Shown: piece after piece, positions 27,336 through 42,282 of the stretch | Layout: every line of letters begins with the position of its first letter | Position numbering within the stretch: position 1 is the stretch's first letter | Assembly: GCA_051117555.1 (NCBI GenBank) | Contig: JBNPEG010000062.1 | Coordinates: 1 to 56,164 of the forward strand | Reading direction: 5' to 3' | From: Elainellaceae cyanobacterium | GTDB lineage: Bacteria > Cyanobacteriota > Cyanobacteriia > CAZCXK01 | Length of the DNA stretch: 56,164 nt | Notes under the pieces: model-generated | Database searches by the model: none | Told to the model about the DNA's origin: nothing | The model's input: only the letters and a program-made list of their open reading frames with translations | Program-made: the position numbers and the translations under genes

Positions 27336-28391
27336 TTAGCTACGAATCTCGTTCCAAACCTGCACCCACTTATCGTAGTCTTTGACGCTCTGCCACATAT
27401 TGATTTCTGCATGGAGCGACAAATCATCCATGTAGAGTTCTTTCGCTCTCTCTGGGCCTATCGCCTCAGCCCCCGCCTCAGTCGCCCCTGAATATCCAGT
27501 TACATCCATGACCCCTTTTTGCCCATCGCCACTGAGGATGTAATCGATCCACTGATAAGCGGCATCGACATTCCGAGAATTTTTGGAAATCATCCATGAA
27601 TCTGTCCAACCTGTGAGCTTCCCTTCTGGACTCACCGAACCAATTGGAAAACCAGCCTCATCTAATTGAGTGTAGGTGAGAGGCCATGCATGAGCCAAAA
27701 CAACTTCACCTGACTGAAAGAGGTTTGCTAGTTCTCCCGCGGTCGTCCAAAATTTGCGAATACTCGGGCGGAGCTCAAGCAGTTTGTCTTTGACGTCTGC
27801 TAAATCATCGTCGGTTAGGCTGTACGGATCATCTTTACCTAACCAGAGCGCTACGTCAGCAATGGTGATCGGGTTGTCAGGGATTGTGACTTTTCCTTCA
27901 TAGTCCGGGTCAAACAAGATATTCCATGATTTGGGTGTCGTGGCTACTTCGTCCGTGTTGTAGAGCAGTACATTGGGGCCCCAAGCAAATGTCACTCCAT
28001 ACAGTTGCCCATCAAATGTATTCCAGTCACCGTGTTGAAAGGATGGAAAGATCGAATCAAAATTTTCTAATTTGCGGGTATCAATAGGTCGAACTAAGCC
28101 TGCCTGGTAGAGCCTTTCGGTGATATCTCCCGACGCAGAAATCAAGTCATACGTGCGTCCACGTCCAGCCCGAAATTTGGCAAACATTTCGTCACTAGAC
28201 CCTGCGTAGGTTGCCTTCACGACACAGCCAGTTTCCTGTTCGAATTGTTCGGTGAACGATGAATCGGTGTAGCCTTCCCATACGATGGCGGTTAGCGTAC
28301 AGCCGGCTGCCTGGGCTGGAGATGCAGGAATGAGCGCAGATGTCAGCCCTAAGAGGCTAACCACAAGTACAATCAACACACGATGCCACAT
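27336..28391 (-). CDS. PotD/PotF-like polyamine ABC substrate-binding protein (orphan)
   Basis: Signal peptide, WEGY, FEQETGC, WGPN, SWNILFDP, WTDSWMI; SD AGGAG. Confidence 0.88.
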   Translation of the reverse strand: MWHRVLIVLVVSLLGLTSALIPASPAQAAGCTLTAIVWEGYTDSSFTEQFEQETGCVVKATYAGSSDEMFAKFRAGRGRTYDLISASGDITERLYQAGLVRPIDTRKLENFDSIFPSFQHGDWNTFDGQLYGVTFAWGPNVLLYNTDEVATTPKSWNILFDPDYEGKVTIPDNPITIADVALWLGKDDPYSLTDDDLADVKDKLLELRPSIRKFWTTAGELANLFQSGEVVLAHAWPLTYTQLDEAGFPIGSVSPEGKLTGWTDSWMISKNSRNVDAAYQWIDYILSGDGQKGVMDVTGYSGATEAGAEAIGPERAKELYMDDLSLHAEINMWQSVKDYDKWVQVWNEIRS

Positions 28392-28507
28392 GAATTCATT
28401 CTCCTGTCTTAATAGATCAAACCTAACGACATCACTCAACCAGATAGGGTAGGCAGTTGGGATAAGAATTGATGTGTCGCGCATCACAGATAAACTCGGG
28501 ACATTCT

Positions 28508-30694
28508 CTAAGCATCGGATTCAACGTCCGATCGCCCTTCAGCAACGGGTGAGGATCGAGGCTTAGAGGTCGCTGTAGGAGGCGATTGCTTCCTGGCGGG
28601 CTGTGGCAGGGCGTCAGGTTGCCCCATTCCGTAGGTGAGGGCATAGCTGCGAGCGAGTAGCCAAAACCATAATGGCGGATTGCGAGGTTCTAGCCAGGGT
28701 TGAATGGCGCGCGTAAAACCAGGAACCCAGCCAAATAGCCAGCTTATCAATGCAGACAGCGTGAAATTGAGATAGCTACCCACCCAGCGAAACAGGTCTT
28801 TTGATCCGGCTAATTCCCAAATCCAGGTGAGAAGGGCAGGATTCTTCCAGGCGGCTTTTAGCGCCATGCGATTAAACGATAGCCAGCCAGCTCGATCTTT
28901 AATAAAGCGATCGCCCACCTCTGGAGACTCACTCGCCAAAATCCCAAAAAAGGTATTCAACATTGAGTTAATCCGCTCAGGAGGCAAAAATTTGCCTGTG
29001 GGTACCATCATTCCTTTAGAAAACAGCCATGTCACCGCGATGTTGCTTTGGAATGCCCGAATCTGACTAAGGTGTTTGGCATCCAGCAAATTGTGACGGA
29101 GGGCGGTATCCAGCAAATCGGTGAGGCGAGGGAGATTCCGCACAAGGGAACCAAACCCCGTGAATACGAGCGGAGACTGAAGCGATGCCGCGTCTCCAAT
29201 GGTGATCAGACGATCAAAGGCTACATGGCGATCGCTCCCCTTGATACTGAAATGGCCTGGAATATAGCCAAATGTCGGTTTTTTCCAGCTCAGCTGATCG
29301 ATATCACATCGACGATACTCCGGCAGAATCGTGAAAAAGTCTTCGTACATCTCCAGTAGGGAACCCGGATTCTCAGGATTCACCTGATGGTAATGAAACA
29401 GGTAAAACGTCAGTTCATCGCCCTTACCAGGAAATAACTCCCAGATTAGCTGCCGTCCTCGTGAAATATCCCCGTGGCTATTGAGCACATCTCCATAGCG
29501 GGAATCCCAGACACCCGATTTAAATCCACCATTAATCACAGCTCCAACCGTTGGACACACGCTATCGAATGCCCGTCCTCCGTTGATTTGCCATGCAATG
29601 GGCGACGCCGTTCCCATCGCATCGACCAGCAACTGTCCCTTTGCTAACTTGGCGGTTTGGGTTGGCAGATGGCTTGCATACACCGTGACCTGAGTTGGGC
29701 TAATGTCTGCCTTAATAAATTCAGTCTGATCCCAGATTTCGCCGCCTGCCGCCTTAAACTTTTCGCCACACGTGCGAAGCAACTGTTCCGCATCTAATGC
29801 CACATTCAAAACCGTCGGCGTATGCAAAATTGGCGCTTTTGCCTGGGGCGGATTATTGGCATCAAAAAACTTATGAAAGCCATCTCGATATTCACGGGCA
29901 ATGATGTGCTCAAACTCATCTGCGGTAAATAGTCCTAAATCGATCAAGCTTTGAAATTCGTCCCTTGAAATATTCCACTCACGGTTCATGCGGCCAAAGG
30001 GGAGCCGCTCAAGCAACAACACTCGATAGCCTAGACGCGCCATCACGGCAGCATGAATGACGCCGAGCGCACCGCCCACATAGATCAAATCGTAAGTGGG
30101 CGAATCTGCCGACCCCAGATTAGAAAATTCAGGAGACTGGAGCGGATGCCTCTCACCCTGTTCAGGGACTGAAAAAATAACCTGCTTGGGTTGCTTCGGG
30201 TTGCGAACTCCGTCGCGCCAGCGCTGCTCCCACCAATAGACCCGTTTGAGATCATATTCCCCGCTGGGCATTTTGCGAAAATAGCGAATCGTTTTGGGAT
30301 AGTGGGCCCCCAGCGCATCAAAGATGGATTCTTTGGGGTCAATCGCAGGCGGAATTGGGTAGTGATGAGGAAACTGTCGACGGATGTCTGCTAAAAGATT
30401 TTGAATGGTTTGCTTCTCGTATGGGAGAGGGGAAGCAGTCCACCGGAATACCTTGAGATAGGTCGTTCGCTGAACAGACCACGTAAATATAGATAGCTCT
30501 GCCGCAGAGGGGGGGCGTTGAGAATCTGAATCACGAATGGCGCCTGTTGGCATCTTGGAGGTCGCAACACTCAGACGAATTCCGTCAGGAGTCAGTGTTT
30601 TTTGCCCGGTATAGGGTTCAAACGTGTGTTGAAGCCATTCTCGGACTGCATCAATCTCGGGTGTAGGAATTTCTATATAGAGAATTTCTCTCAT
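28508..30694 (-). CDS. cruA: CruA-type lycopene cyclase (flavoprotein)
   Basis: MREILYIEIPTP N-terminus, YDLIYVGGALG, MNREWNISR, DAMGTASP, GDAASLQSPLVFTGFGSL. Size (~730 aa) fits CruA rather than CruP. Confidence 0.82.
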   Translation of the reverse strand: MREILYIEIPTPEIDAVREWLQHTFEPYTGQKTLTPDGIRLSVATSKMPTGAIRDSDSQRPPSAAELSIFTWSVQRTTYLKVFRWTASPLPYEKQTIQNLLADIRRQFPHHYPIPPAIDPKESIFDALGAHYPKTIRYFRKMPSGEYDLKRVYWWEQRWRDGVRNPKQPKQVIFSVPEQGERHPLQSPEFSNLGSADSPTYDLIYVGGALGVIHAAVMARLGYRVLLLERLPFGRMNREWNISRDEFQSLIDLGLFTADEFEHIIAREYRDGFHKFFDANNPPQAKAPILHTPTVLNVALDAEQLLRTCGEKFKAAGGEIWDQTEFIKADISPTQVTVYASHLPTQTAKLAKGQLLVDAMGTASPIAWQINGGRAFDSVCPTVGAVINGGFKSGVWDSRYGDVLNSHGDISRGRQLIWELFPGKGDELTFYLFHYHQVNPENPGSLLEMYEDFFTILPEYRRCDIDQLSWKKPTFGYIPGHFSIKGSDRHVAFDRLITIGDAASLQSPLVFTGFGSLVRNLPRLTDLLDTALRHNLLDAKHLSQIRAFQSNIAVTWLFSKGMMVPTGKFLPPERINSMLNTFFGILASESPEVGDRFIKDRAGWLSFNRMALKAAWKNPALLTWIWELAGSKDLFRWVGSYLNFTLSALISWLFGWVPGFTRAIQPWLEPRNPPLWFWLLARSYALTYGMGQPDALPQPARKQSPPTATSKPRSSPVAEGRSDVESDA

Positions 30695-30861
30695 TTTTGA
30701 TGATGTTTTTGACGATTTTTAAACTTTGACGACAATCATCTGACCGGGTAGGTGCAACTGATTCAAAATTTGCGCTACACTTCCCTTCAATGCGGTAAGC
30801 TCTTAAAAAACTTTACAGGATTCTCATATTTCTTCAGGGAGTGCATACATTTGTGACAACT

Positions 30862-31116
30862 ATGAATTATCCCATTCCAGAGAACCCCCAACAAATAGCT
30901 GCTCTGCGTCAAAAACCCATCGATGAAGAGATTGTTGCAGCTGCGATCGCCGGTGTGATTCGAGTTGCCCGTTCTAACGGTCAATCGTTAGAAGATTTGA
31001 CGGCTGAGGTTTTAGCGGACGATCGCATCTTAAATTGGGAAGTCCGCTGCTGGTTGAGCGAACTTGTCACCCAAACGTGGAAAAATCTTCCCCACGACAC
31101 TCAGGTAACGCTGTAA
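30862..31116 (+). CDS. Conserved cyanobacterial hypothetical protein (84 aa)
   Basis: MNYPIP...EEIVAAAIAGVI...GQSLEDLTAEVLADD. Confidence 0.8.
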   Translation: MNYPIPENPQQIAALRQKPIDEEIVAAAIAGVIRVARSNGQSLEDLTAEVLADDRILNWEVRCWLSELVTQTWKNLPHDTQVTL

Positions 31117-31190
31117 ATGATTGTCTCCAAATTTTTACCGCGCGTTGAGGTGCCCTTCCGTAATTCGTATATCCAATCCGCAGCGCCTCG

Positions 31191-32099
31191 TTACGAGATG
31201 GTTCTAGAAATCCAGACGAGTAAGCTGGGTGCGAATAATGCACCATCAATCCCAATGCTATAAACATCTCGGGGTGTTTTGGGAGTAATCGTCCAGACGA
31301 AGATGATGTTCATTACACTCATGGCGATCGCCACTAGAGGCATCGGAATCGCCAAGCTGTGTAACCACCCCCATGCCAAAATGGGCAACAGCAGCAGATT
31401 TAAGACAGACCAGATTATCCGATTTCCGGTCACTCCAACCATCAGTGGAAGGGTAAGGACGCCTTTCTTGCGGTCAGATTCTAAATCTCGAACATCGAAT
31501 AGATGAGAATTGGTGCCTACAAAAATCAGCAAGAATAAAGCGGTGAGCCCAGCAGATAGAGTCAACGACATTTGTGCGTACGCCAGTGGAACCGCGATCA
31601 GCGCGTAGGTAATCGTTCCACACACAATCCAGGCTTTGGACCCTGGGATATCTTTGAGGCGATACCACCGTAATCCTTGTTCGCGGCGCATTGGGAACAG
31701 GGGAATGCCGTAGATCAGAGGAACTAACCCCCCGCAGCTAACCAGCGGCACAGGGCTAGGAGCCTGATAGAGCAGAATTGCAGTACCTAACACGGCGATC
31801 GCCGTCATGCCCCATCCCCAACCATTCCGGAAGTATGCCTGGGCATCGGGGTCAGGAATTTTTTGAACATACGCATCTGCAATACGATCGAGATTGTAGG
31901 GAATCAGTGCTGCTGTAAAGATAAGTAATGCTGGATGCCAGTCAATGGCAATGCCTAAGGTATCTTGCACGAAGAATACCAAGGATGCAATGCCAGCCGC
32001 CACCCAAATGTTGGAGTAGACCAACCCATTGAGAAAAAGCTGATAGATCGTTTGAGAAATTGATGTTGAAGTCTGGCGAGAATGCTGTTGGAATGTCAT
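31191..32099 (-). CDS. UbiA-superfamily membrane prenyltransferase
   Basis: Multiple TMs; Asp-rich motifs YNLDRIAD and FDVRDLESDRKKGVLTLP; RLKDIPGSK. Confidence 0.85.
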   Translation of the reverse strand: MTFQQHSRQTSTSISQTIYQLFLNGLVYSNIWVAAGIASLVFFVQDTLGIAIDWHPALLIFTAALIPYNLDRIADAYVQKIPDPDAQAYFRNGWGWGMTAIAVLGTAILLYQAPSPVPLVSCGGLVPLIYGIPLFPMRREQGLRWYRLKDIPGSKAWIVCGTITYALIAVPLAYAQMSLTLSAGLTALFLLIFVGTNSHLFDVRDLESDRKKGVLTLPLMVGVTGNRIIWSVLNLLLLPILAWGWLHSLAIPMPLVAIAMSVMNIIFVWTITPKTPRDVYSIGIDGALFAPSLLVWISRTIS

Positions 32100-32224
32100 T
32101 GGGATTTTAGCAATTTCGTTGAGTCACGTATTGAGGGAAAGACGTTGAGAAGAGGTATTTGATTTCCACATAAATTGCCCGCAGGCATAGCCTACGGGCC
32201 TTACGCATGGCGTAATAGAATCTC

Positions 32225-33061
32225 TTAGCTGACGCCTGCCAACTCTCGCGAATCATCCGCAGAGGTATCTGGTGTGCGATCGCCAGATTCGCCCAAATCT
32301 GCTTGAGTTTTGATACGGGCAATGTTGTAGACTAGCAGTCCGAAAAGTGGCTTTGCCAACAAATCAGCAACAGTGTAGCCAATTTGCACGCCAACTAATG
32401 CATTAGCTCCAGCAATGCCCAGTTCGGGTAACACATATGCGATCGGGTATACACCCCATGATAGGAGCAGAAGTAGACGCATACTGCCGACCACAGATTT
32501 GACGCCTTCAGGCTGGCGATCGAGAGATTTGCCGAGTTCGATCCACAACACATACAAAATGTAAGCAAACGGGATCGTGCTAACGGCTCCCCAAATCGCA
32601 CGTGTCATGATGTCGTCAGCAATTTCGCCAGGATATCCAGTCACCAGCATCAAAACGGCTGCGACTGCCAGCTTAACGATTAACGGGCGAGCAACCTTCT
32701 TTGAAAGTGCAAGAACCGCTACAGCTTCCACAAGTAGCAGAGGCACCGTCAGCAACCAATCTGCATACCGATAAGCATCATTGAAAGGCTCACCTGTCGC
32801 CAGATACACACCCTCCTGGAGGGTGTAGGATGCATCCCAGCTACCAAAAATGCGGAAATAGTGGTATGCGGCAATACTAACAATCACACCCGAAATGAGT
32901 AGAGCAGGGCGATACTTTTCGCTCACTAGCGACTTTGCATTGAAAAAGAAGAGAGCTGCTGCGAGCATGGCAGCAATACAGAGCGAAAAGCCATTGTAAA
33001 CCAAACTAAATTGGTTATACGACAGCTCTGGTGGCAGCGATGCCAATGTCGATAACATCAT
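32225..33061 (-). CDS. Microbial rhodopsin, Gloeobacter rhodopsin/xanthorhodopsin type (DTE proton pump)
   Basis: 7 TM; YHYFRIF (His), RYADWLLTVPLLLVE (D-T-E), GYPGE, WGVYPIAY, DLLAK (retinal Lys); SD AAGGA. Confidence 0.95.
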   Translation of the reverse strand: MMLSTLASLPPELSYNQFSLVYNGFSLCIAAMLAAALFFFNAKSLVSEKYRPALLISGVIVSIAAYHYFRIFGSWDASYTLQEGVYLATGEPFNDAYRYADWLLTVPLLLVEAVAVLALSKKVARPLIVKLAVAAVLMLVTGYPGEIADDIMTRAIWGAVSTIPFAYILYVLWIELGKSLDRQPEGVKSVVGSMRLLLLLSWGVYPIAYVLPELGIAGANALVGVQIGYTVADLLAKPLFGLLVYNIARIKTQADLGESGDRTPDTSADDSRELAGVS

Positions 33062-34834: not shown

Positions 34835-35671
34835 CTATCGGTGTTTCCAATATCGTTCAGTGTCCTCATCGGCGGGAAATAAACATTCGATTCGCAGTTC
34901 TTGCAGGGTAATGTCATAAGCAGTCCCGAGCGTGGCGATCGTTGAAAAAAATTGCCAGTCTAGAGAATCTCGCTTGAAGTGAACTGTAAGCAACAGGGTA
35001 TTTTGTTCGACTCGTTTGGGAATATGCCAAAGTTCAGTCACCCCTGGATAGCTCATGAGAGTGTTCAGCAATTGGGTAGATTGGTCACTGTTTCCTTCTG
35101 AGGTTACTTCTCGACGCACTCGATGCAGCAAATGCTCGGCGCACTCCCGCCAGTTGACAATAAAGGGGCGTAGTCCTTGGGGATGAAACATGGCCTGCAT
35201 GAGATTGAGTTTGCCATCCATGCTGGCATGGGTGTGTAGTGTTTCCATATCAAGGAATGCCGTCAAGAGACGAGTCGCAGCATCGTTGGTCAGCAGTAAA
35301 TTCCAGTAGCGATCAATAATGACTGCTGGATAGGGTTCTTGCTGTCGCAGCATGAAATCGAGCGCTTTGCGAATCGAAGTCATTTCAAGCGCTGAAAGGT
35401 CTGTCTCGGTGTGAATGGGCGCGAATCCAGCAGCGGTTAGCATTAGATTTTGGTGTCTCAACGGGACATCCAGAACAGCGGCTAATTCTAAAACCATCGC
35501 TCGGCTAGGGTTCGCTCGTCCTGATTCTAAAAAACTGATATGCCGTTGCGACACCCGACTGGCAAGGGATAACTCGAGCTGGCTGAAGCCTCGTTGAGTC
35601 CGCCATTGCTTGAGGAGCATGCTAAAGGAATGAGCGGAATCCGGTTGGATTGGATTGGAACGATGCTGCAT
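34835..35671 (-). CDS. XRE-family HTH regulator with MmyB-like ligand-binding domain
   Basis: SQLELSLASRVSQRHISFLESGR, EPYPAVIIDRYWN, LQELRIECLFPAD. Confidence 0.92.
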   Translation of the reverse strand: MQHRSNPIQPDSAHSFSMLLKQWRTQRGFSQLELSLASRVSQRHISFLESGRANPSRAMVLELAAVLDVPLRHQNLMLTAAGFAPIHTETDLSALEMTSIRKALDFMLRQQEPYPAVIIDRYWNLLLTNDAATRLLTAFLDMETLHTHASMDGKLNLMQAMFHPQGLRPFIVNWRECAEHLLHRVRREVTSEGNSDQSTQLLNTLMSYPGVTELWHIPKRVEQNTLLLTVHFKRDSLDWQFFSTIATLGTAYDITLQELRIECLFPADEDTERYWKHR

Positions 35672-36522: not shown

Positions 36523-39500
36523 CTATTCCACCACGCGTAAGGTAGAAGACGCCGATCGCCCAAACTCTTCAGGAGCATATTCTAGGTGCGCTTCGGCTCC
36601 GGGATAGTGGTAGGTGCCGGGCGTCACCGATCGCACGAGGTAATGGAGACTATACACACCCGGATCGAGGCGATCGCCATAGGCCACGATGCGATCCTTA
36701 TAAATCGTTTGATAGCCGACTTGCCAACTATCACTGCGGGCTTGGAAGTAGGGATTAGCAGTTTGAAAGCTTTCATCCACGGCTTCAAATCCGGCGGGGA
36801 GGGGGTCGGTGATGACGACATGATCGACAGAATGATCGGTGATGATTTCTAGCCCAACGTCATAAACCTGACCCGGCGGCACCGACAGCGGGTCGTCTAC
36901 CACATAGAGGTCATACTCTTGAAGGACATCATCCTGATTCGCGGGGCGAATGGTGCGCGTCACCCGCAAGCCGCTCAGCCGTCCGGGCTGGTCGCCTTCG
37001 AGCCGATAGCGATAGGCTGCTAGATAGTGCAGCAAGCCATCACCTGTTTTTTGCAGGGAGAGCAGATTACGCCCGCGCTGGAGGTCTGCCATGGGGATGC
37101 TCTCGGCAGCGCTGGGGTTGCTGTAGCCCTCAAACTCAGTCGAGAGAAGGGTTTGGCCATTCAGTTGAGCGGTAGCAGAAAAGTCAGGTGGGGTGGGCTG
37201 CAACTGGCTGTAGTTGACCAGTGCCAGCAGTGCTTCAGCATTGTCGTAGGTGCTGTCCCAAACGCCATCTCGCCGCTGATCGAGCAAGCCACGCACCAGG
37301 CGATCGATCAGTTCGGGATTGCTGTCGCGGGCAATGAAGAGGCGCAGCGCCTGTGCCTGCACTGCTGTCGGAGAGCTGAGCCACTGCCAGGTGCGGGGCA
37401 AGTTGACTGTCGCGCTGCGGCTGGTTTGATAGACAATTTCTTGCAGGTCGTTTGCCAGTTCGTTGGCTTGAGATTGCCAATCGGGGAGCTGAGCTAGATG
37501 TCGCGCCAGCTTGATTTGCGTCACCGGGTCAAACTGCGATCGCTGCGCATAGATATCGGCAACAAAAGAATTGCGCACATCGCCAAAGGCAGCCAGGGCA
37601 GTCAAAGCCCGGAGGCGCACCTGATTTTGGCAAAGCTGTTGGGTGCAGTAGTCATATTGGCTGGGGTTTGCCAGAATGTCTTGCAAATAGCTCCGCAATT
37701 GGCTCACCCTCTCTGCATCCGGAGCAGCAGCCGTGCCAGAGAAGGCATCAACAGCGCGGGCGATCGCCTCAGCCGCATAGGGCGTGACGTAAGGGTCAGA
37801 GCGCTCCTGCCCAGGGTAGGAGGCAAATCCACCATCGGGACGCTGTAGCTCACTCAGTCGGCTGAGGGCTTGAGTGGCTTGCCGGGTCGGCTCAAACTCG
37901 GCAAAGCTCTGACCTAGGGTTTGCAATAGAGAGTGCAGGCTAGTGGCGATCGCCAACTGACTGGCGGCAGGTTCTAAAAAGGGAAGCTGTTCCTGGTTGA
38001 GGACTTGCTGAGCCGGGGCGTTGATTTCAGGAATCAGGGTGCTGGCAAGTGTCAGGTCGATGCCGCCCGTGTCTTGCGGCACGTTCTCGGTGACGTTGAA
38101 GAGAATTTGGGCTTGGCTGGCGGTGACGCCCGTTTCTACCACCTGTTCGGTAATCTGGTTGGTGCGAATTTCGAGAGGAAACTCAAACGCATCCGAGAAT
38201 CCGTCGAGCTGGCTGGTGAACTGGATCGTGCCTTCATCCGACCCTGTTACCACCATCGGAAAGCGGTAGGCTTGGGTGCCCGATTCGACTCGAGTTTCCA
38301 GACTGGCGGAGGCATCATCTGCCAGTTGCAGCGCACCGCCGACCGTGCCGGTGATGTCGAGGGTGCCCGATTCACCCGTGTTGTTTGTGACAGAAAGCCC
38401 CGCCTCGATGCGATCGCCTGGACGGGCAAACTGCGGCAGAATCGGATTCGTCACTAGTGGCTTGGTGGAAATGAATGTCGTATCGGTGCTGTTGGCAAAG
38501 CGCAAATTGCCATCGGTGGCGATCGCCATGACTCGCCAGGTAGTGAGGTCATCTGGCAGGGTGAAGTTTACCGACGCGCGACCATTAGCGTCGGTGAGCA
38601 CCGAGCCGTTATAGTAGGCGATCGCCTTAAACTCGGTGCGAATGCGGGTGTCGCCTGCGCCGCTAGAAAGTCCGCCGCCATATCCCCAGCCTTTTTCCAA
38701 CGGAGATGAGAGGGGAGTCAAGACGACTTCGGGGCGATTATCGGCAAAGCGCACCGAAATCGGCTGTTCCGCATAGACCGTCTCGACCAAATTGGGGATG
38801 CGATAGCCGCTCAGTTGCAACACGGCTTCATTCACTGCCATGACAGTGATTTGTCCCTGAACAGGCTGTTCCCCCCCATTCGTCAAGCTGAAAGTCACGG
38901 TCTGCTCGCCTGCGGGTTCTAACGATTCCTCTGCCAAATCGACCTGAAGATCTAAATACGTGCTGTCCAGGCTCGTGCCAAAGGGCGCAAAGCCGATGCG
39001 AGCCAGGTCTTCCACAGTTCCTACTTCAACCTGAGATAGGGGTTCGCCCTTGCGTACCAGCACTGCTTCTACGGCGGCATTCGGCAGCATGTCAGACGTG
39101 ACTTCAAACTGAATCTGAGGCGCGCCCCCCTGTACGGTCGTTACAGTCTGGTAAATGGTGTCGTGCCGCACGATGGCAAAGTAAAGCTCGGCCTCCTCGT
39201 AGGGCGACTGGATTAACACCGTCGCTGTTTCACCCAGCTTATAGGTGTCTTTGTTGAGCTGAAGCTCAAGGCGGTCGTTGGTGTAGCGTCCTCCCCAGTA
39301 AACAGGCGTATTCCCTGTCACCCAAATCTGTGTATCGGTGGCAGTCACCTCATCATCAGCGTTAGCGAAGTTGGCGCGAATACGATACGACCCCGATTCG
39401 CTGGGCGTCAGCGTCACCGACTGGGGGTCATCCCCCGATCGCACGGTGGCCTCAGCGACGGTTTCATACTCCACCTGATTGCGGGCGGTGGAGCTACCAG

Positions 39501-42282
39501 CAATCACCTGAGTGATGCCGCTGTAGTTCATTTTCTGGAGTTCGATCCGCACCTGCTGCCCCGACACCGCATTACCGTCGGGGTCACTGACAATAATCTG
39601 GATGGGAAAATCTTCATCGACCTCCGCGACAAAATCACTTTGGAGACCAATCAGGCGATCGCTCGGCAATGCCGTAAAGGTCTGCGACGCCGTCACCGAT
39701 AGATTTGACACGTCCGACACCTCAGCATCCACGCGATAGGTCATCGGATAGGGCAAATCATCGGCGACTTCAACCGTCACCTCACCGCTGCCGTCGTCAC
39801 TGAGAGATTCGCTCCGCTGCAATACATCGCTGGATACAGAGGGAGCCTCGTCCGGCCAAAACCACTGCCGCCCAAAGGAGAATTGATTCCAAGCCTCTGG
39901 GGTGAACTGGGTTTGCTGGCGCGTGACATAGTAGCTGACGTCGCCTTCCTCCACGGGGGGTTCAAATAAATAGTTGCTCTGTGCCGATGCGGTGATCTCG
40001 TCTCCCGACATGGCAAATTGCTGATCGAGCGTCAGGTCGACTTTGAAGTTGGGCGGCTTGAACTCGGCGATGCGAAACTCGCCCGTGATTTCTTTGCCAT
40101 TGTCCGCCTTAGCGCGAATGGTGTAGAAGCCCAGCGGTTGATCAGGGGCGATCGCCCATTCCAGCGAGAAGGTGCCAAATGAGTTAGTTGTTTGAGTCCC
40201 TAGCTCGAGGGTGTTGCCGTTGGGATCATCCAGCGTCACCGTATAGGAAACATTTGGGTCTTGCTGGAGCGTTCCGTTTTGTAGGAAATAGGCGGCTCCG
40301 GTGAAATAAGCCGTCTCGCCCGGCTGGTACAGATTGCGATCGGAGAAAATCGTGCCCCGCGATTCGGGTTGGTTGTTGTTCCAGCCCCCCGTAATGCCGT
40401 AGCCCCACGCGCCACTGTACTGAAAGGTGCGAGCAAATGCCCAATCCTGTCCTTCCCGCGCGATCACGAGCAGATCGGGGGCATCGATAAACTGGGCGTT
40501 GCCGTTCATACACTGACGCAAATCGGATGCTCCCAACGCTAACTGGCCGGATTGATCGGCTTGTCCGGAAAAGCAGGGTGAGGTCGCGGTGCGCGTTTCG
40601 GCATCCAGTCTCGATTCATAAATCTCGATTCGCGCATTCCCAACGCTGGAGCCGTCAGACAAATGCTGCACGCGCACGATGCCCGACTCGGGAAACCACT
40701 GGGCAAACACGCCTAGATTCGTCAATTGCACTAACCCATAGAAAGTCGGTTCGCGCCATTCCTGTCGACCATCTACGGAATACTGTCCAGCACGTGCTTG
40801 GACTCCGTACGCTAGCATGCCCGTGTTACTATTCAGCCTTTCTCGCAGCGGTACGGCAATTTCGGTCGTTTCATTGGCTGGTAGCTGTACTGGAGCCGTC
40901 TGCCAGTTCGCCGGGCCGGGCAACAAATCCGTTGTTTGATTTCGAGGATAGGCCGAATCCGTGTAAACCAAGTCGCCGGGCTGCACGATGCGATAAGCAG
41001 CTTTGTATTGGTTTTCGGGCAAATTCACGGCTGAGAAATTGAGCTGTAGATTTTGCCCCGCCGGGAAAATGTTGAGTCCGTTGGGTGCCCAGAAGTCGCC
41101 TGCCAAATCGCCCGTTTCGTAGCGAACCGTCACAGATTCGCCCAATGTTTGCCCGTATTGGTCTTCGAGCTCAGACCCTAAGGTGATGGTGTAGGCAGTG
41201 GCTGGCTCTAATGCCCATGGGTTTAGGCTAACGAGGCGATCGCCCTCATAGGCTCTTATCAGCGGCGGCGTGTCTTTTGGTGGCGGATCGATCGAAATAT
41301 TCTCTGCGGCAGACTCTGCCACCAGCCCATTGTTGAATGCGAGCTGCGGTCGTCCTTTAACAAAGCGGCCATGGGCTCCGCCCGCGCTTGCTGAATCGAC
41401 GAGTTCTAACTCTTCAAAGCTGAGCGGCCCATAGGTTTCCACTTGACTGGTAAATGCCATCTCACTGGCTAAATTACCCCCCGCCGGCAGAATCCCAGGT
41501 GCAAATTCCAAGGTGTAGCGGGTTGCCTTGGCAAGCTGTCGCTGAGGTGTAATCTGATAAACCCACTGCCGCGCCGACGGGTCAAACTCTTCTTGAGGCG
41601 TATCTCTAACCTCTTGAGAATTTGGGTCAGAATCATCCGCGGATTCAACAGCGAGCCTGACCGACTCTTCGCTGTTGGCAGGAATAAGGCGAACGTGGTC
41701 TCGCAGTGATCTCAGATTGAGTTCGACATTAGAAGTCACCCTCAGGGTTGGCTGCAACTCAATCGGGGGCAATTCCGATTCTGGGAATTCGGACGTTCCT
41801 GGCAAGTTGGTGAGCTGAATGGGTTCTGTGTTGAACGTCCAGACGAAATCTTGATCGAGCTGGTGCTCGTTTAAATCTGCTAAGCCCGCCTTAAGGGTGA
41901 CGCGAAATCGGGTGGCGTTAGGAAGCGCCTGATCGGCTTGAAAACCTACCATGCGCGGAGTTAAAAACCGAAACTGTCCGGGTAAGGGAGGTACCACTTC
42001 AAAGTTTTGCAGAACCTCTCGCGACTCGGGATTGGCTAAATCCTCAACGGGGATCAGCGGATCGGTGAAGCGAATTCGAATTTGTGCAAGTGATTCGGCT
42101 TGCTCAGTTGGGCTGATGTTCTCAATCCAGTCTGGCAAGGTAGGGGTTGGAATCGGCTCGACACTTGGAGGAGGGGCAGATTCTCGCAACTGCACAATGT
42201 TGCATCCTGCGATGAGCAGCGTCATGCTGAAGCCTAGTAGAAAATACGTCCAGGTTTTAGCGATGAGTCGAGAAATCTGCAT
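36523..42282 (-). CDS. Bacterial alpha-2-macroglobulin family lipoprotein
   Basis: Lipobox LIAGC, Ig-like N-terminus, FSDRNLYQPGE, EFKPPNF, LPDDLTTWRVMA, LPQFARPGD, QRPDGGF, DPLPAGFE, YAPEEFGRS. Confidence 0.93.
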   Translation of the reverse strand: MQISRLIAKTWTYFLLGFSMTLLIAGCNIVQLRESAPPPSVEPIPTPTLPDWIENISPTEQAESLAQIRIRFTDPLIPVEDLANPESREVLQNFEVVPPLPGQFRFLTPRMVGFQADQALPNATRFRVTLKAGLADLNEHQLDQDFVWTFNTEPIQLTNLPGTSEFPESELPPIELQPTLRVTSNVELNLRSLRDHVRLIPANSEESVRLAVESADDSDPNSQEVRDTPQEEFDPSARQWVYQITPQRQLAKATRYTLEFAPGILPAGGNLASEMAFTSQVETYGPLSFEELELVDSASAGGAHGRFVKGRPQLAFNNGLVAESAAENISIDPPPKDTPPLIRAYEGDRLVSLNPWALEPATAYTITLGSELEDQYGQTLGESVTVRYETGDLAGDFWAPNGLNIFPAGQNLQLNFSAVNLPENQYKAAYRIVQPGDLVYTDSAYPRNQTTDLLPGPANWQTAPVQLPANETTEIAVPLRERLNSNTGMLAYGVQARAGQYSVDGRQEWREPTFYGLVQLTNLGVFAQWFPESGIVRVQHLSDGSSVGNARIEIYESRLDAETRTATSPCFSGQADQSGQLALGASDLRQCMNGNAQFIDAPDLLVIAREGQDWAFARTFQYSGAWGYGITGGWNNNQPESRGTIFSDRNLYQPGETAYFTGAAYFLQNGTLQQDPNVSYTVTLDDPNGNTLELGTQTTNSFGTFSLEWAIAPDQPLGFYTIRAKADNGKEITGEFRIAEFKPPNFKVDLTLDQQFAMSGDEITASAQSNYLFEPPVEEGDVSYYVTRQQTQFTPEAWNQFSFGRQWFWPDEAPSVSSDVLQRSESLSDDGSGEVTVEVADDLPYPMTYRVDAEVSDVSNLSVTASQTFTALPSDRLIGLQSDFVAEVDEDFPIQIIVSDPDGNAVSGQQVRIELQKMNYSGITQVIAGSSTARNQVEYETVAEATVRSGDDPQSVTLTPSESGSYRIRANFANADDEVTATDTQIWVTGNTPVYWGGRYTNDRLELQLNKDTYKLGETATVLIQSPYEEAELYFAIVRHDTIYQTVTTVQGGAPQIQFEVTSDMLPNAAVEAVLVRKGEPLSQVEVGTVEDLARIGFAPFGTSLDSTYLDLQVDLAEESLEPAGEQTVTFSLTNGGEQPVQGQITVMAVNEAVLQLSGYRIPNLVETVYAEQPISVRFADNRPEVVLTPLSSPLEKGWGYGGGLSSGAGDTRIRTEFKAIAYYNGSVLTDANGRASVNFTLPDDLTTWRVMAIATDGNLRFANSTDTTFISTKPLVTNPILPQFARPGDRIEAGLSVTNNTGESGTLDITGTVGGALQLADDASASLETRVESGTQAYRFPMVVTGSDEGTIQFTSQLDGFSDAFEFPLEIRTNQITEQVVETGVTASQAQILFNVTENVPQDTGGIDLTLASTLIPEINAPAQQVLNQEQLPFLEPAASQLAIATSLHSLLQTLGQSFAEFEPTRQATQALSRLSELQRPDGGFASYPGQERSDPYVTPYAAEAIARAVDAFSGTAAAPDAERVSQLRSYLQDILANPSQYDYCTQQLCQNQVRLRALTALAAFGDVRNSFVADIYAQRSQFDPVTQIKLARHLAQLPDWQSQANELANDLQEIVYQTSRSATVNLPRTWQWLSSPTAVQAQALRLFIARDSNPELIDRLVRGLLDQRRDGVWDSTYDNAEALLALVNYSQLQPTPPDFSATAQLNGQTLLSTEFEGYSNPSAAESIPMADLQRGRNLLSLQKTGDGLLHYLAAYRYRLEGDQPGRLSGLRVTRTIRPANQDDVLQEYDLYVVDDPLSVPPGQVYDVGLEIITDHSVDHVVITDPLPAGFEAVDESFQTANPYFQARSDSWQVGYQTIYKDRIVAYGDRLDPGVYSLHYLVRSVTPGTYHYPGAEAHLEYAPEEFGRSASSTLRVVE

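Follow-up and report, generated by a model that had tools for sequence, protein, structure and literature searches.

In published descriptions, cyanobacterial rhodopsins of the GR, CyR and CyR-II types are encoded by stand-alone genes, and the supply of their pigments alongside photosynthesis is a question in its own right. What is to be made of a soil cyanobacterium in which a rhodopsin gene lies directly 5' of an orphan gene of the UbiA superfamily? The window analysed here is the whole stretch of 56,164 nucleotides of contig JBNPEG010000062.1 (assembly GCA_051117555.1) from an Elainellaceae cyanobacterium, and its coordinates and motifs bear out the preliminary description of a DTE rhodopsin followed, 125 bp away on the same strand, by a UbiA protein with both Asp-rich motifs. 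The locus draws attention to a recurrent genomic partner of cyanobacterial rhodopsins that resembles a carotenoid-modifying enzyme.

The upstream gene (32225..33061, minus strand; 278 aa) encodes what is, judged by its matches and key residues, a Gloeobacter/xanthorhodopsin-type rhodopsin, a light-driven outward proton pump. It matches PF01036 in a Pfam profile search (E 4.8e-43), and among solved structures it is closest to Gloeobacter rhodopsin (6nwd, E 1.8e-112, ungapped over 252 residues), with psXR also matching (9wfa, E 8.6e-112). The Schiff-base lysine, DTE motif and His-Asp counterion complex of seven-helix GR/xanthorhodopsin pumps are all found (D101/T105/E112 form the DTE motif; H67, D233 and the Schiff-base K237 are also there). 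As in that family, of which it is a close relative, a glycine occupies the carotenoid-antenna fenestration position; this residue, G158, is invariant in 15 GR-type sequences and aligns with G178 in GR numbering, the offset being taken from the 6nwd alignment. The genome encodes three RPE65-type carotenoid oxygenases, and retinal more likely comes from one of these than from Blh. PF15461 (Blh/Brp) has no match in the genome, in a search that was equally silent in all control genomes; the model scores 131.9 bits on the rhodopsin-adjacent gene of another genome (G094, locus L118). The present pair is laid out like that rhodopsin-blh pair, with a polytopic membrane protein of about 300 aa directly downstream on the same strand, but here the downstream product has the UbiA fold and is not Blh.

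This downstream gene (31191..32099, minus strand) encodes an uncharacterised integral-membrane protein of 302 aa, in which the motifs N69-x-D71-R72-x-x-D75 and D202-x-R204-D205-x-x-S208-D209 are invariant across an alignment (A1) of 30 homologues, the D/K positions being retained in 31 wider relatives. Its AlphaFold (AF2) model (pLDDT 87, pTM 0.85) has AfUbiA, DGGGPS, UBIAD1 and ApUbiA as top Foldseek matches (probability 1.00, TM 0.53-0.67), with AfUbiA (4tq3) at probability 1.00 and TM 0.63-0.67. By its motifs and modelled fold, it is a catalytically equipped membrane prenyltransferase with two predicted Mg-diphosphate-binding Asp motifs and the UbiA fold. Its Pfam UbiA (PF01040) score is 30.5 bits against a cut-off of 34.2, and most of its homologues carry a precomputed PF01040 match. 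It lies far below every NCBIfam cut-off (for the housekeeping UbiA enzymes, best scores 17-26 bits, cut-offs 238-387), and none of the 51 wider relatives scanned (0/51) reached a UbiA-family cut-off.

We also asked, as had been proposed at the outset, whether the protein groups with the housekeeping UbiA enzymes. It does not, and all five are encoded elsewhere in the genome, each above its NCBIfam cut-off: haem O synthase (CtaB), 4-hydroxybenzoate polyprenyltransferase, homogentisate phytyltransferase (HPT), ChlG and cyanobacterial MenA. A role as a housekeeping quinone, tocopherol, chlorophyll or haem enzyme is ruled out by scores far under the cut-offs and by the five separate genes that fill these roles. 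The nearest named profiles, archaeal DGGGPS-like and NCBIfam PRK13591, match very weakly, and neither is a carotenoid enzyme; together with AfUbiA (4tq3) and the PT_UbiA_5 subgroup of IspH-UbiA fusions they make up the best matches by profile and by structure, though these are weak. The protein scores 5- to 10-fold under the cut-offs of the PRK13591, DGGGPS-like and PT_UbiA_5 subgroups, and the genome has no GGGPS/PcrB, the partner in the ether-lipid route, above cut-off. One IspH-UbiA fusion appears among the relatives (E 5e-21), and no fused form was found within the clade itself in a weak search; according to one publication (PMC4746011), what such fusions do is not known. Near the three non-cyanobacterial relatives with readable flanks, pigment genes are absent.

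That the best matches, weak as they are, belong to lipid or quinone enzymes lends weight to a different account, in which UbiA would make some other isoprenoid lipid (such as a further prenylquinone, an antioxidant resembling the tocochromanols, or a lipid for the membrane or for export) with no functional tie to rhodopsin, and both genes would be accessory traits of cyanobacteria from high-light, marine, hypersaline or crust settings, tending to land in the same flexible regions of the genome. We regard this as doubtful, though with a substantial chance of being right. Against it stand the presence of all known quinone and tocopherol prenyltransferases in the genome already and the lack of an above-cut-off GGGPS/PcrB partner.

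The preliminary description had extended the pair to a rhodopsin-UbiA-cruA module, and here the comparison with related genomes divides the claim: the rhodopsin-UbiA pair stands and cruA falls away. cruA (28508..30694, minus strand; 728 aa) does lie one small gene beyond UbiA, but that conserved 91-aa gene of unknown function (30841..31116) sits on the plus strand, convergent with UbiA and divergent from cruA, so that cruA cannot share a transcript with rhodopsin or UbiA. Many proteins annotated by JGI as 'lycopene cyclase CruA' share 68-75% identity with the cruA product, which is 33% identical to the CruP paralogue of the genome (contig C135, its gene 61% identical to a Halothece-type gene); by sequence identity, cruA is the ortholog of CruA and not of CruP. 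Beyond it, as context, lies a polyamine-type ABC substrate-binding protein gene (SBP; 27336..28487, minus strand; SBP_bac_8, E 8.5e-35). The 91-aa gene, which has no Pfam or NCBIfam match, is 96% identical within the genus and 64% in the sister genus, where it again adjoins cruA. In the sister-genus genome G482 (99% complete) the SBP is 85% identical and syntenic, the SBP-cruA-small-gene block is kept, and neither this UbiA nor any PF01036 gene occurs; rhodopsin and UbiA are adjacent in all three genomes of the genus studied here. Because the sister genus has the block without UbiA or rhodopsin, these two are, on comparative grounds, a two-gene accessory pair beside a resident cruA, which is itself a bystander by the same comparison, a separate transcription unit at its ancestral site whose adjacency is coincidental in this genus.

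The two genes of the pair are themselves separated by a GC-rich hairpin found in a pattern scan 26 nt past the rhodopsin stop (32177..32199, minus strand; 10 pairs, 8 of them G-C, and a weak U tract) and present in the MFE and centroid folds alike. The two further genomes of the genus keep the stem, differing in the loop and by one G-U/A-U change; the hairpin is possibly a terminator, attenuator or 3' stabiliser. Given this conserved hairpin and the place of cruA within the ancestral SBP-cruA-small-gene block, the stretch from rhodopsin through UbiA and the small gene to cruA is not one operon. The hairpin, which suggests separate transcripts, would also suit the view that the tandem arose by chance and became fixed in a single genus, nearby rhodopsins elsewhere being likewise accidental. 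We consider this decidedly improbable, since rhodopsin and UbiA are absent together from the sister genus, a joint absence that counts against the account of an unrelated lipid as well.

The distribution of rhodopsins around UbiA in other lineages bears more broadly on both alternatives. Rhodopsin genes stand within 4 kb of UbiA in four lineages that are separate on the UbiA tree and involve three pump clades (GR, CyR and CyR-II): the genus of the window (GR type, gap 125 bp), Leptolyngbya sp. Heron Island J (L008; GR type, 2.4 kb), L012 (CyR-II type, 3.95 kb) and L077 (CyR type, 3.8 kb). A fifth case, in L037, is an NaR/ClR-like rhodopsin about 11.6 kb away. The four near cases compare with about 0.04 expected (Poisson p ~1e-7), an estimate that presumes random placement, the excess being smaller if accessory genes crowd in islands; rhodopsin is, in addition, joint second among about 600 neighbour families by recurrence over 22 UbiA lineage groups. 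Both observations argue against chance, in favour of which are the confinement of the tandem form to one genus and a rhodopsin tree in which joint transfer with the pair of L008 finds no support. Moreover, habitat alone would hardly bring a gene found in some 5% of cyanobacteria to within 4 kb of UbiA four times independently.

Recurrence is not the same as conserved linkage, however, and a survey of rhodopsin neighbourhoods for this UbiA clade upholds the former, in four lineages within 4 kb, and not the latter. Most GR-type rhodopsins are not adjacent to this UbiA, and UbiA, cruA and cruP are absent from the flanks of 10/10 other GR-type rhodopsin loci in UbiA-bearing genomes. One account (PMC4210194) describes the gene for GR as solitary. 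In Waterburya kin of L077, rhodopsin and UbiA lie about 1 Mb apart. The near cases also differ in architecture, being tandem, divergent or convergent, with rhodopsin divergent from a UbiA operon in L008 and L012; this variety is what one would expect if the enzyme made a lipid unconnected with rhodopsin.

At the level of whole genomes, the clade is patchy (8/401 cyanobacterial genomes), and PF01036 is found in 5/8 genomes with UbiA and 16/393 without (Fisher p 1.2e-5; 1.5e-4 with genus collapsed). In a second collection, rhodopsin occurs in 32/80 clade-bearing genomes against 21/401 in the background sample. Culturable carriers of the UbiA include Leptolyngbya sp. Heron Island J, Lyngbya sp. 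PCC 8106 and Xenococcus sp. PCC 7305. This co-occurrence lies mostly between families and not inside them, and the within-family contrasts of the 401-genome sample (with versus without UbiA: 2/3 vs 0/1 in f13, 1/1 vs 0/1 in f17, 0/1 vs 1/1 in f26 and 0/1 vs 0/24 in f3) are too few to part co-occurrence from shared ancestry or habitat. Forty-eight of the 80 genomes with UbiA, including chromosome-level Rivularia assemblies, have no rhodopsin match, rhodopsin occurs without UbiA in 16/21 genomes of the 401-genome sample, and a GR-type rhodopsin is found without UbiA in a 99%-complete genome (G264). The coupling thus appears to be facultative, as either gene occurs alone. The two sets of solitary genes and the predominance of between-family co-occurrence are again points for the unconnected lipid.

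The remaining neighbours of the UbiA clade speak more directly to its substrate. Directly downstream of UbiA, L053 and L066 carry a CruP orthologue, which in L066 overlaps UbiA by 4 bp. Same-strand arrays of a helical carotenoid protein (HCP; Carot_N), a MATE exporter and UbiA occur in L013, L043 and L059, HCP and UbiA without MATE in L018, and in L008 an HCP-MATE pair lies 6 kb from UbiA, with the rhodopsin on UbiA's other side. A PAP-fibrillin-like gene is directly upstream in 10 Rivularia/Calothrix-type loci (4-bp overlap in five), and a polyprenyl synthetase gene lies 3.3-3.8 kb upstream in 4 loci. The fibrillin-like and polyprenyl synthetase neighbours suit a prenylquinone product just as well.

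Carotenoid-binding or -processing neighbours (rhodopsins, CruA/CruP, HCP with MATE, fibrillin-like) recur across lineages far above chance, and a carotenoid-type substrate is favoured because in other lineages UbiA is linked, in putative operons, to cruP, to HCP plus MATE or to the fibrillin-like gene. HCP and CruP, as carotenoid-specific neighbours, fit poorly with an unrelated lipid; that account can claim the fibrillin-like and polyprenyl synthetase genes, as well as the MATE exporter, which is the commonest same-strand upstream neighbour in the Xenococcaceae/Pleurocapsa-type clade (directly upstream in 7 loci).

Because its relatives recur beside rhodopsins and carotenoid-handling genes in other cyanobacteria, UbiA may well be carotenoid-modifying, and our tentative preference, held at somewhat short of an even chance, is for a carotenoid-directed prenyltransferase loosely coupled to rhodopsins. 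Much as lycopene elongases do, such an enzyme would move a prenyl group from a prenyl diphosphate onto a carotenoid-pathway molecule, close to or at the lycopene/beta-carotene node, from which retinal is supplied as well; in high-light habitats the modified carotenoid might serve in photoprotection or be a pigment associated with rhodopsin. The original suggestion that UbiA prenylates or elongates a carotenoid gains from its non-housekeeping nature, its carotenoid-gene neighbours and the co-occurrence with rhodopsin, and loses from the unconserved linkage and the bystander status of cruA.

We know of no carotenoid with extra prenyl units from cyanobacteria, nor of elongated carotenoids in oxygenic phototrophs. 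One could speculate, though we think it unlikely, that this clade gives oxygenic phototrophs their first carotenoid prenyltransferase, an elongase-like enzyme. Its product, a prenylated or elongated carotenoid, would pass to HCP, to fibrillin and, as an antenna pigment, to the fenestrated GR-type rhodopsin, and the enzyme would also compete at the lycopene node with the synthesis of retinal; bacteria would then have an equivalent of the opsin/lycopene-elongase node of haloarchaea. Such pigment handover and competition would account for a repeated recruitment of cyanobacterial proton-pump genes beside UbiA.

The lycopene elongases (LyeJ/Lye of haloarchaea, CrtEb of Corynebacterium, LbtBC of Dietzia) are likewise UbiA-fold membrane enzymes with two Asp-rich motifs, and they and the bacterio-opsin/Lye circuit share with the present clade a genomic association with opsin and lycopene-cyclase-type genes. 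In Halobacterium, bacterio-opsin inhibits the UbiA-family lycopene elongase (PMC6212597). By analogy, UbiA could resemble a lycopene elongase and compete for lycopene with the synthesis of retinal, apo-opsin binding and inhibiting the enzyme so as to direct flux to beta-carotene and retinal. Besides that precedent, the tandem beside cruA, the divergent layouts of rhodopsin and UbiA operon in L008 and L012, and an association covering three proton-pump clades whose sole common requirement is retinal would all agree with this. We nevertheless judge it very improbable. Most UbiA carriers have no opsin that could regulate the enzyme, and NF009608, a model of elongases only by inference, matches the Corynebacterium glutamicum and Haloferax volcanii control genomes and nothing in this one. 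Where the known elongases have a cruF/crtD or CrtYe/f-type partner, the clade has CruA/CruP-type, HCP, MATE and fibrillin-like neighbours; no cruF, crtD or C50-cyclase gene (CrtYe/f, LbtA) is among the scanned window ORFs, the cyclase-family neighbours being CruA/CruP-type instead. The host is, moreover, an oxygenic phototroph, and its opsin linkage facultative.

A carotenoid-directed prenyltransferase, if confirmed, could mean a new carotenoid class in oxygenic phototrophs, could account for pigments that serve rhodopsin-bearing cyanobacteria as antennae or in photoprotection, and would give an orphan UbiA family a function. Should the enzyme be unrelated to carotenoids, it would still mark an uncharacterised isoprenoid lipid of high-light cyanobacteria. 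Members of the clade occur in cultured strains of Lyngbya, Xenococcus, Crocosphaera, Nodosilinea and Rivularia.

The four genes that the preliminary description placed side by side are indeed present in the window. The rhodopsin gene (32225-33061, minus strand; 278 aa; PF01036 E 4.8e-43) is followed on the same strand by a gene for a UbiA-like protein of 302 aa (31191-32099), which starts 125 bp past the rhodopsin stop codon. The lycopene cyclase gene cruA (28508-30694, minus strand; 728 aa) lies further on, with a small open reading frame of 91 aa on the plus strand (30841-31116) between it and UbiA. Apart from these four, the 56-kb window carries housekeeping genes, and no further pigment gene was found among them. 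By the names of its closest database matches, the organism belongs to the Elainellaceae. The rhodopsin aligns with Gloeobacter rhodopsin (GR; 6nwd) without gaps (E 1.8e-112) and carries D101/T105/E112 (DTE), H67, D233, K237 and G158, read from that alignment at an offset of +20. The last of these occupies, in GR numbering, the fenestration-glycine position. The CruA protein is 68-75% identical to many proteins named 'lycopene cyclase CruA' by JGI, and 33% identical to the second family member of this genome (G000), on contig C135.

Comparison within the family distinguishes an old part of this block from an accessory one. In G482, a 99% complete genome of a sister genus, the genes for an ABC substrate-binding protein, CruA and the small protein stand in the same order (85, 71 and 64% identity), and neither a match to the UbiA profile nor a PF01036 gene occurs anywhere in that genome. 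In the window's genus, the rhodopsin-UbiA-small gene-cruA arrangement is found in 3/3 genomes. Because the sister genus keeps the cruA block without either gene and the window's genus keeps all of them, cruA is a bystander at its ancestral site, and the GR-type pump and the UbiA come and go together as an accessory pair, gained or lost jointly in this family. What had been proposed as a rhodopsin-UbiA-cruA module is thus reduced to the pair that G482 lacks. No convincing flanking repeats and no tRNA were found at the block as scars of a mobile element. Transfer of the pair from a donor resembling Leptolyngbya sp. Heron Island J (locus L008) gets no support from the rhodopsin tree, whose base is unresolved. 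Two further MAGs labelled Elainellaceae (loci L021 and L039) also have UbiA and a GR-type rhodopsin, both genes falling in clades apart from those of the window's genus, a pattern that would fit either independent acquisition or imprecise taxonomic labelling.

Upstream of the rhodopsin by 1.8 kb, on the same strand, lies a gene for an MmyB-like HTH regulator (34835-35671; MLTR_LBD E 1.4e-29). It is probably not a dedicated regulator, because no copy turned up within the 32 kb surrounding the block in another genome of the genus. Beyond it, a bacterial alpha-2-macroglobulin-type protein of 1919 aa (36523-42282, minus strand; MG2, A2M and bMG10 domains) is encoded within a stretch of higher G+C content (0.54-0.57 vs ~0.50).

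The 91-aa gene is real: its identity is 96% between members of the genus and 64% to the copy in the sister genus, which also adjoins cruA. Because it lies on the opposite strand, cruA cannot share a transcript with rhodopsin or UbiA. Between the latter two genes is a hairpin (32199-32177, minus strand) of 10 pairs, 8 of them G-C, which the MFE and centroid folds both show. The genus's two further genomes have it as well, differing only in the loop and at one G-U/A-U position. Read-through is possible, since the U tract of the hairpin is weak.

The UbiA-like protein scores below the Pfam threshold for its family (30.5 bits; cut-off 34.2), and no NCBIfam model came near its own cut-off. It is nonetheless an intact, prenyl-diphosphate-binding member of the fold. 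The motifs N69-x-D71-R72-x-x-D75 and D202-x-R204-D205-x-x-S208-D209 are invariant in an alignment of 30 homologues, and the AlphaFold model derived from this alignment (pLDDT 87, pTM 0.85) matches AfUbiA, DGGGPS, UBIAD1 and ApUbiA with probability 1.00 in structure comparison. There are seven PF01040-type genes in G000, of which five exceed NCBIfam cut-offs, for haem O synthase, 4-hydroxybenzoate polyprenyltransferase, homogentisate phytyltransferase, ChlG and cyanobacterial MenA. Since these housekeeping enzymes are separately encoded, the window's UbiA is, judged by its sequence, an extra enzyme outside the quinone/lipid set. Grouping with that set had been raised as a possibility; the protein instead falls far under every NCBIfam cut-off. 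NF009608, a model presumably equivalent to the lycopene elongases, matches in the C. glutamicum and Hfx. volcanii control genomes and has no match in G000. An ether-lipid route was set aside, as G000 has no PcrB/GGGPS above cut-off.

A profile search of 1.84 billion representatives with this clade yielded 769 clusters at E <= 1e-10, 57 of them reaching E <= 1e-30. Among the 150 relatives listed, 51 were scanned against NCBIfam; none (0/51) reached a UbiA-family cut-off, the commonest weak match was PRK13591, and one relative was an IspH-UbiA fusion, a type described as of unknown function in the accessible portion of PMC4746011. The cluster names of 10 of these relatives were generic, the ESM Atlas matches of the window's UbiA were generic UbiA clusters only, and no fused forms of the clade itself were found among longer proteins, which is weak evidence. 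A metagenome scan with distant relatives gave seven loci, three with usable flanks (~70% GC), and no pigment genes were found in the flanks of those three non-cyanobacterial relatives.

To our knowledge, lycopene elongation is the sole carotenoid reaction known for the UbiA fold. A carotenoid-directed function is our best guess for this orphan clade, tentatively held, because of its genomic company. In Dactylococcopsis (L066) and Halothece (L053), for example, an orthologue of the CruP of G000, the CruA paralogue on C135, is encoded directly downstream of UbiA, with a 4-bp overlap in the former; this orthologue shares 61% identity with the C135 gene and 31-33% with CruA. In a Xenococcaceae/Pleurocapsa-type clade, UbiA is the last gene of a same-strand array, with a MATE exporter immediately upstream in seven loci. 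In L013, L043 and L059 the exporter is preceded by the gene for a helical carotenoid protein (HCP; Carot_N, E 3.6e-54), which in L018 comes directly before the UbiA region, and the HCP-MATE pair recurs in the rhodopsin-bearing locus L008, 6 kb from UbiA. The array of HCP, small Cys-rich protein, MATE exporter and UbiA on one strand (L013:5558-8897, L043:382-3317, L059:5897-8885, L018:6934-8891) looks like an operon to make and move a lipophilic pigment. CruA/CruP, HCP and rhodopsin share an involvement with carotenoids or retinal, which they bind or process, and the recurrence of UbiA beside rhodopsins and carotenoid proteins across lineages is non-random placement.

Other neighbours are less specific. 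In 10 Rivularia/Calothrix-type loci, UbiA is immediately preceded by a same-strand gene of ~246 aa, and in five of these the two overlap by 4 bp. The product of this gene resembles fibrillin (PAP_fibrillin E 0.028, covering almost the entire profile), and 29/30 of its nearest Atlas clusters belong to the PAP_fibrillin set. A polyprenyl synthetase is encoded 3.3-3.8 kb upstream of UbiA in four loci. These two neighbours fit any isoprenoid lipid, and the main rival reading, which we regard as somewhat doubtful, is that the enzyme makes an isoprenoid lipid unrelated to carotenoids. If the function is carotenoid-directed, the UbiA would prenylate a molecule of the carotenoid pathway, and perhaps the product would be used in photoprotection or as a rhodopsin-associated pigment. 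The opsin-coupled carotenoid module envisaged earlier is supported in part. A precedent is the inhibition of lycopene elongase by bacterio-opsin in haloarchaea, as given in the available part of PMC6212597. No family was found for neighbour cluster 72 or for a 171-aa membrane protein (cluster 2), both of which have unlinked copies in G000. In two chromosome-level Rivularia genomes (L026:7263-8004, L029:7263-8004), the fibrillin-like gene, one 246-aa frame in their kin, is two overlapping frames (99 + 176/177 aa), a split that a frameshift or a long-read assembly error might explain.

The linkage of rhodopsin to UbiA, scored within 8-kb flanks of UbiA, proved recurrent but far from general. The genes are in same-strand tandem in the three genomes of the window's genus. 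In L008, a GR-type rhodopsin (69% identical) lies 2.4 kb from UbiA, divergent from an array of small gene, peroxiredoxin, unknown gene and UbiA. The L012 rhodopsin (best solved relative cyanorhodopsin-II 8h79, E 3.7e-72) lies at 3.95 kb and diverges from the pair that UbiA forms with a histidine kinase gene, and that of L077 (cyanorhodopsin 6lm0, E 5.5e-98) is 3.8 kb away and convergent. A fifth case, L037, has an NaR/ClR-like rhodopsin at ~11.6 kb. The label 'near' requires five changes on the maximum-likelihood UbiA tree. If placement were random, 0.04 cases within 4 kb would be expected from the ~30 genomes that have both genes (Poisson p ~1e-7, under a null that takes no account of how accessory genes cluster). 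For an internal control, loci were sorted into 22 lineage groups (>= 70% UbiA identity) and ~600 neighbour families ranked by groups of recurrence; rhodopsin recurs in 4/22, behind only a promiscuous histidine-kinase/response-regulator cluster (seven groups) and tied with a TPR cluster. On the other side, at 10/10 other GR-type rhodopsin loci from UbiA-bearing genomes, UbiA, cruA and cruP are absent among the flanking frames, which are unrelated housekeeping genes instead; a GR-type rhodopsin occurs without UbiA in G264; and in Waterburya relatives of L077 the two genes are ~1 Mb apart. No description of a cyanobacterial rhodopsin-UbiA link was found among the papers listed in the literature searches, as judged in part from titles and the beginnings of abstracts: in their accessible portions, PMC4210194 has the GR gene standing alone, PMC5714133 yielded nothing on this UbiA clade, and PMC13753752 concerns archaeal lyeJ.

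At the level of whole genomes, in a sample of 401 drawn evenly over the phylum, the UbiA clade (E <= 1e-30) occurs in eight and PF01036 in 21, with both in five (G000, G158, G101, G128, G250). PF01036 is thus present in 5/8 UbiA-bearing genomes vs 16/393 others (Fisher p 1.2e-5, or 1.5e-4 with the window's genus counted once, kin not being independent). Within families the contrast is thin (2/3 vs 0/1 in f13, 1/1 vs 0/1 in f17, 0/1 vs 1/1 in f26 and 0/1 vs 0/24 in f3). A scan of one genome per species found 80 UbiA loci, 78 of them cyanobacterial, and PF01036 in 32/80 of the genomes (15/40 + 17/40). Habitat may contribute to this co-occurrence; many carriers are marine, hypersaline or intertidal by name. 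The purple sulfur bacterium Thiococcus pfennigii has a UbiA of the clade (L076:7725-8831; 48% identical) beside isocitrate lyase and signalling genes; its position nested among cyanobacterial sequences, though on a long branch, suggests lateral transfer.

As for retinal supply, G000 encodes three RPE65-type carotenoid oxygenases, and the beta-carotene dioxygenase Blh (PF15461) was not found in a genome search that also matched no control genome. One of the three oxygenases is the more likely source of the rhodopsin's retinal, because no Blh was found. No Blh stands beside rhodopsin in the Cyanophyceae loci examined; the classical pair is seen in G094 (L118:5333-7121), which belongs to a different class of the phylum and has Blh (131.9 bits) 104 bp after a rhodopsin of GR-like type (53% identical). 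In L077 (10647-13446), the gene for the 6lm0-like cyanorhodopsin is followed on its strand by those for a zinc alcohol dehydrogenase (22-bp gap) and for a 2-hydroxyacid dehydrogenase, a set that may be a retinal/retinol-handling unit. Elsewhere in G000, a second divergent UbiA-like gene (C201:42505-43479, equal to L081:8506-9480; PF01040 31.3 bits, under cut-off, no NCBIfam match) was considered as a relative of the window's UbiA and rejected as unrelated (BLASTP E 1.5). Near this second gene are those for an RPE65-type carotenoid oxygenase (E 8.4e-147), at 1 kb, and for phytoene synthase, at ~7 kb.
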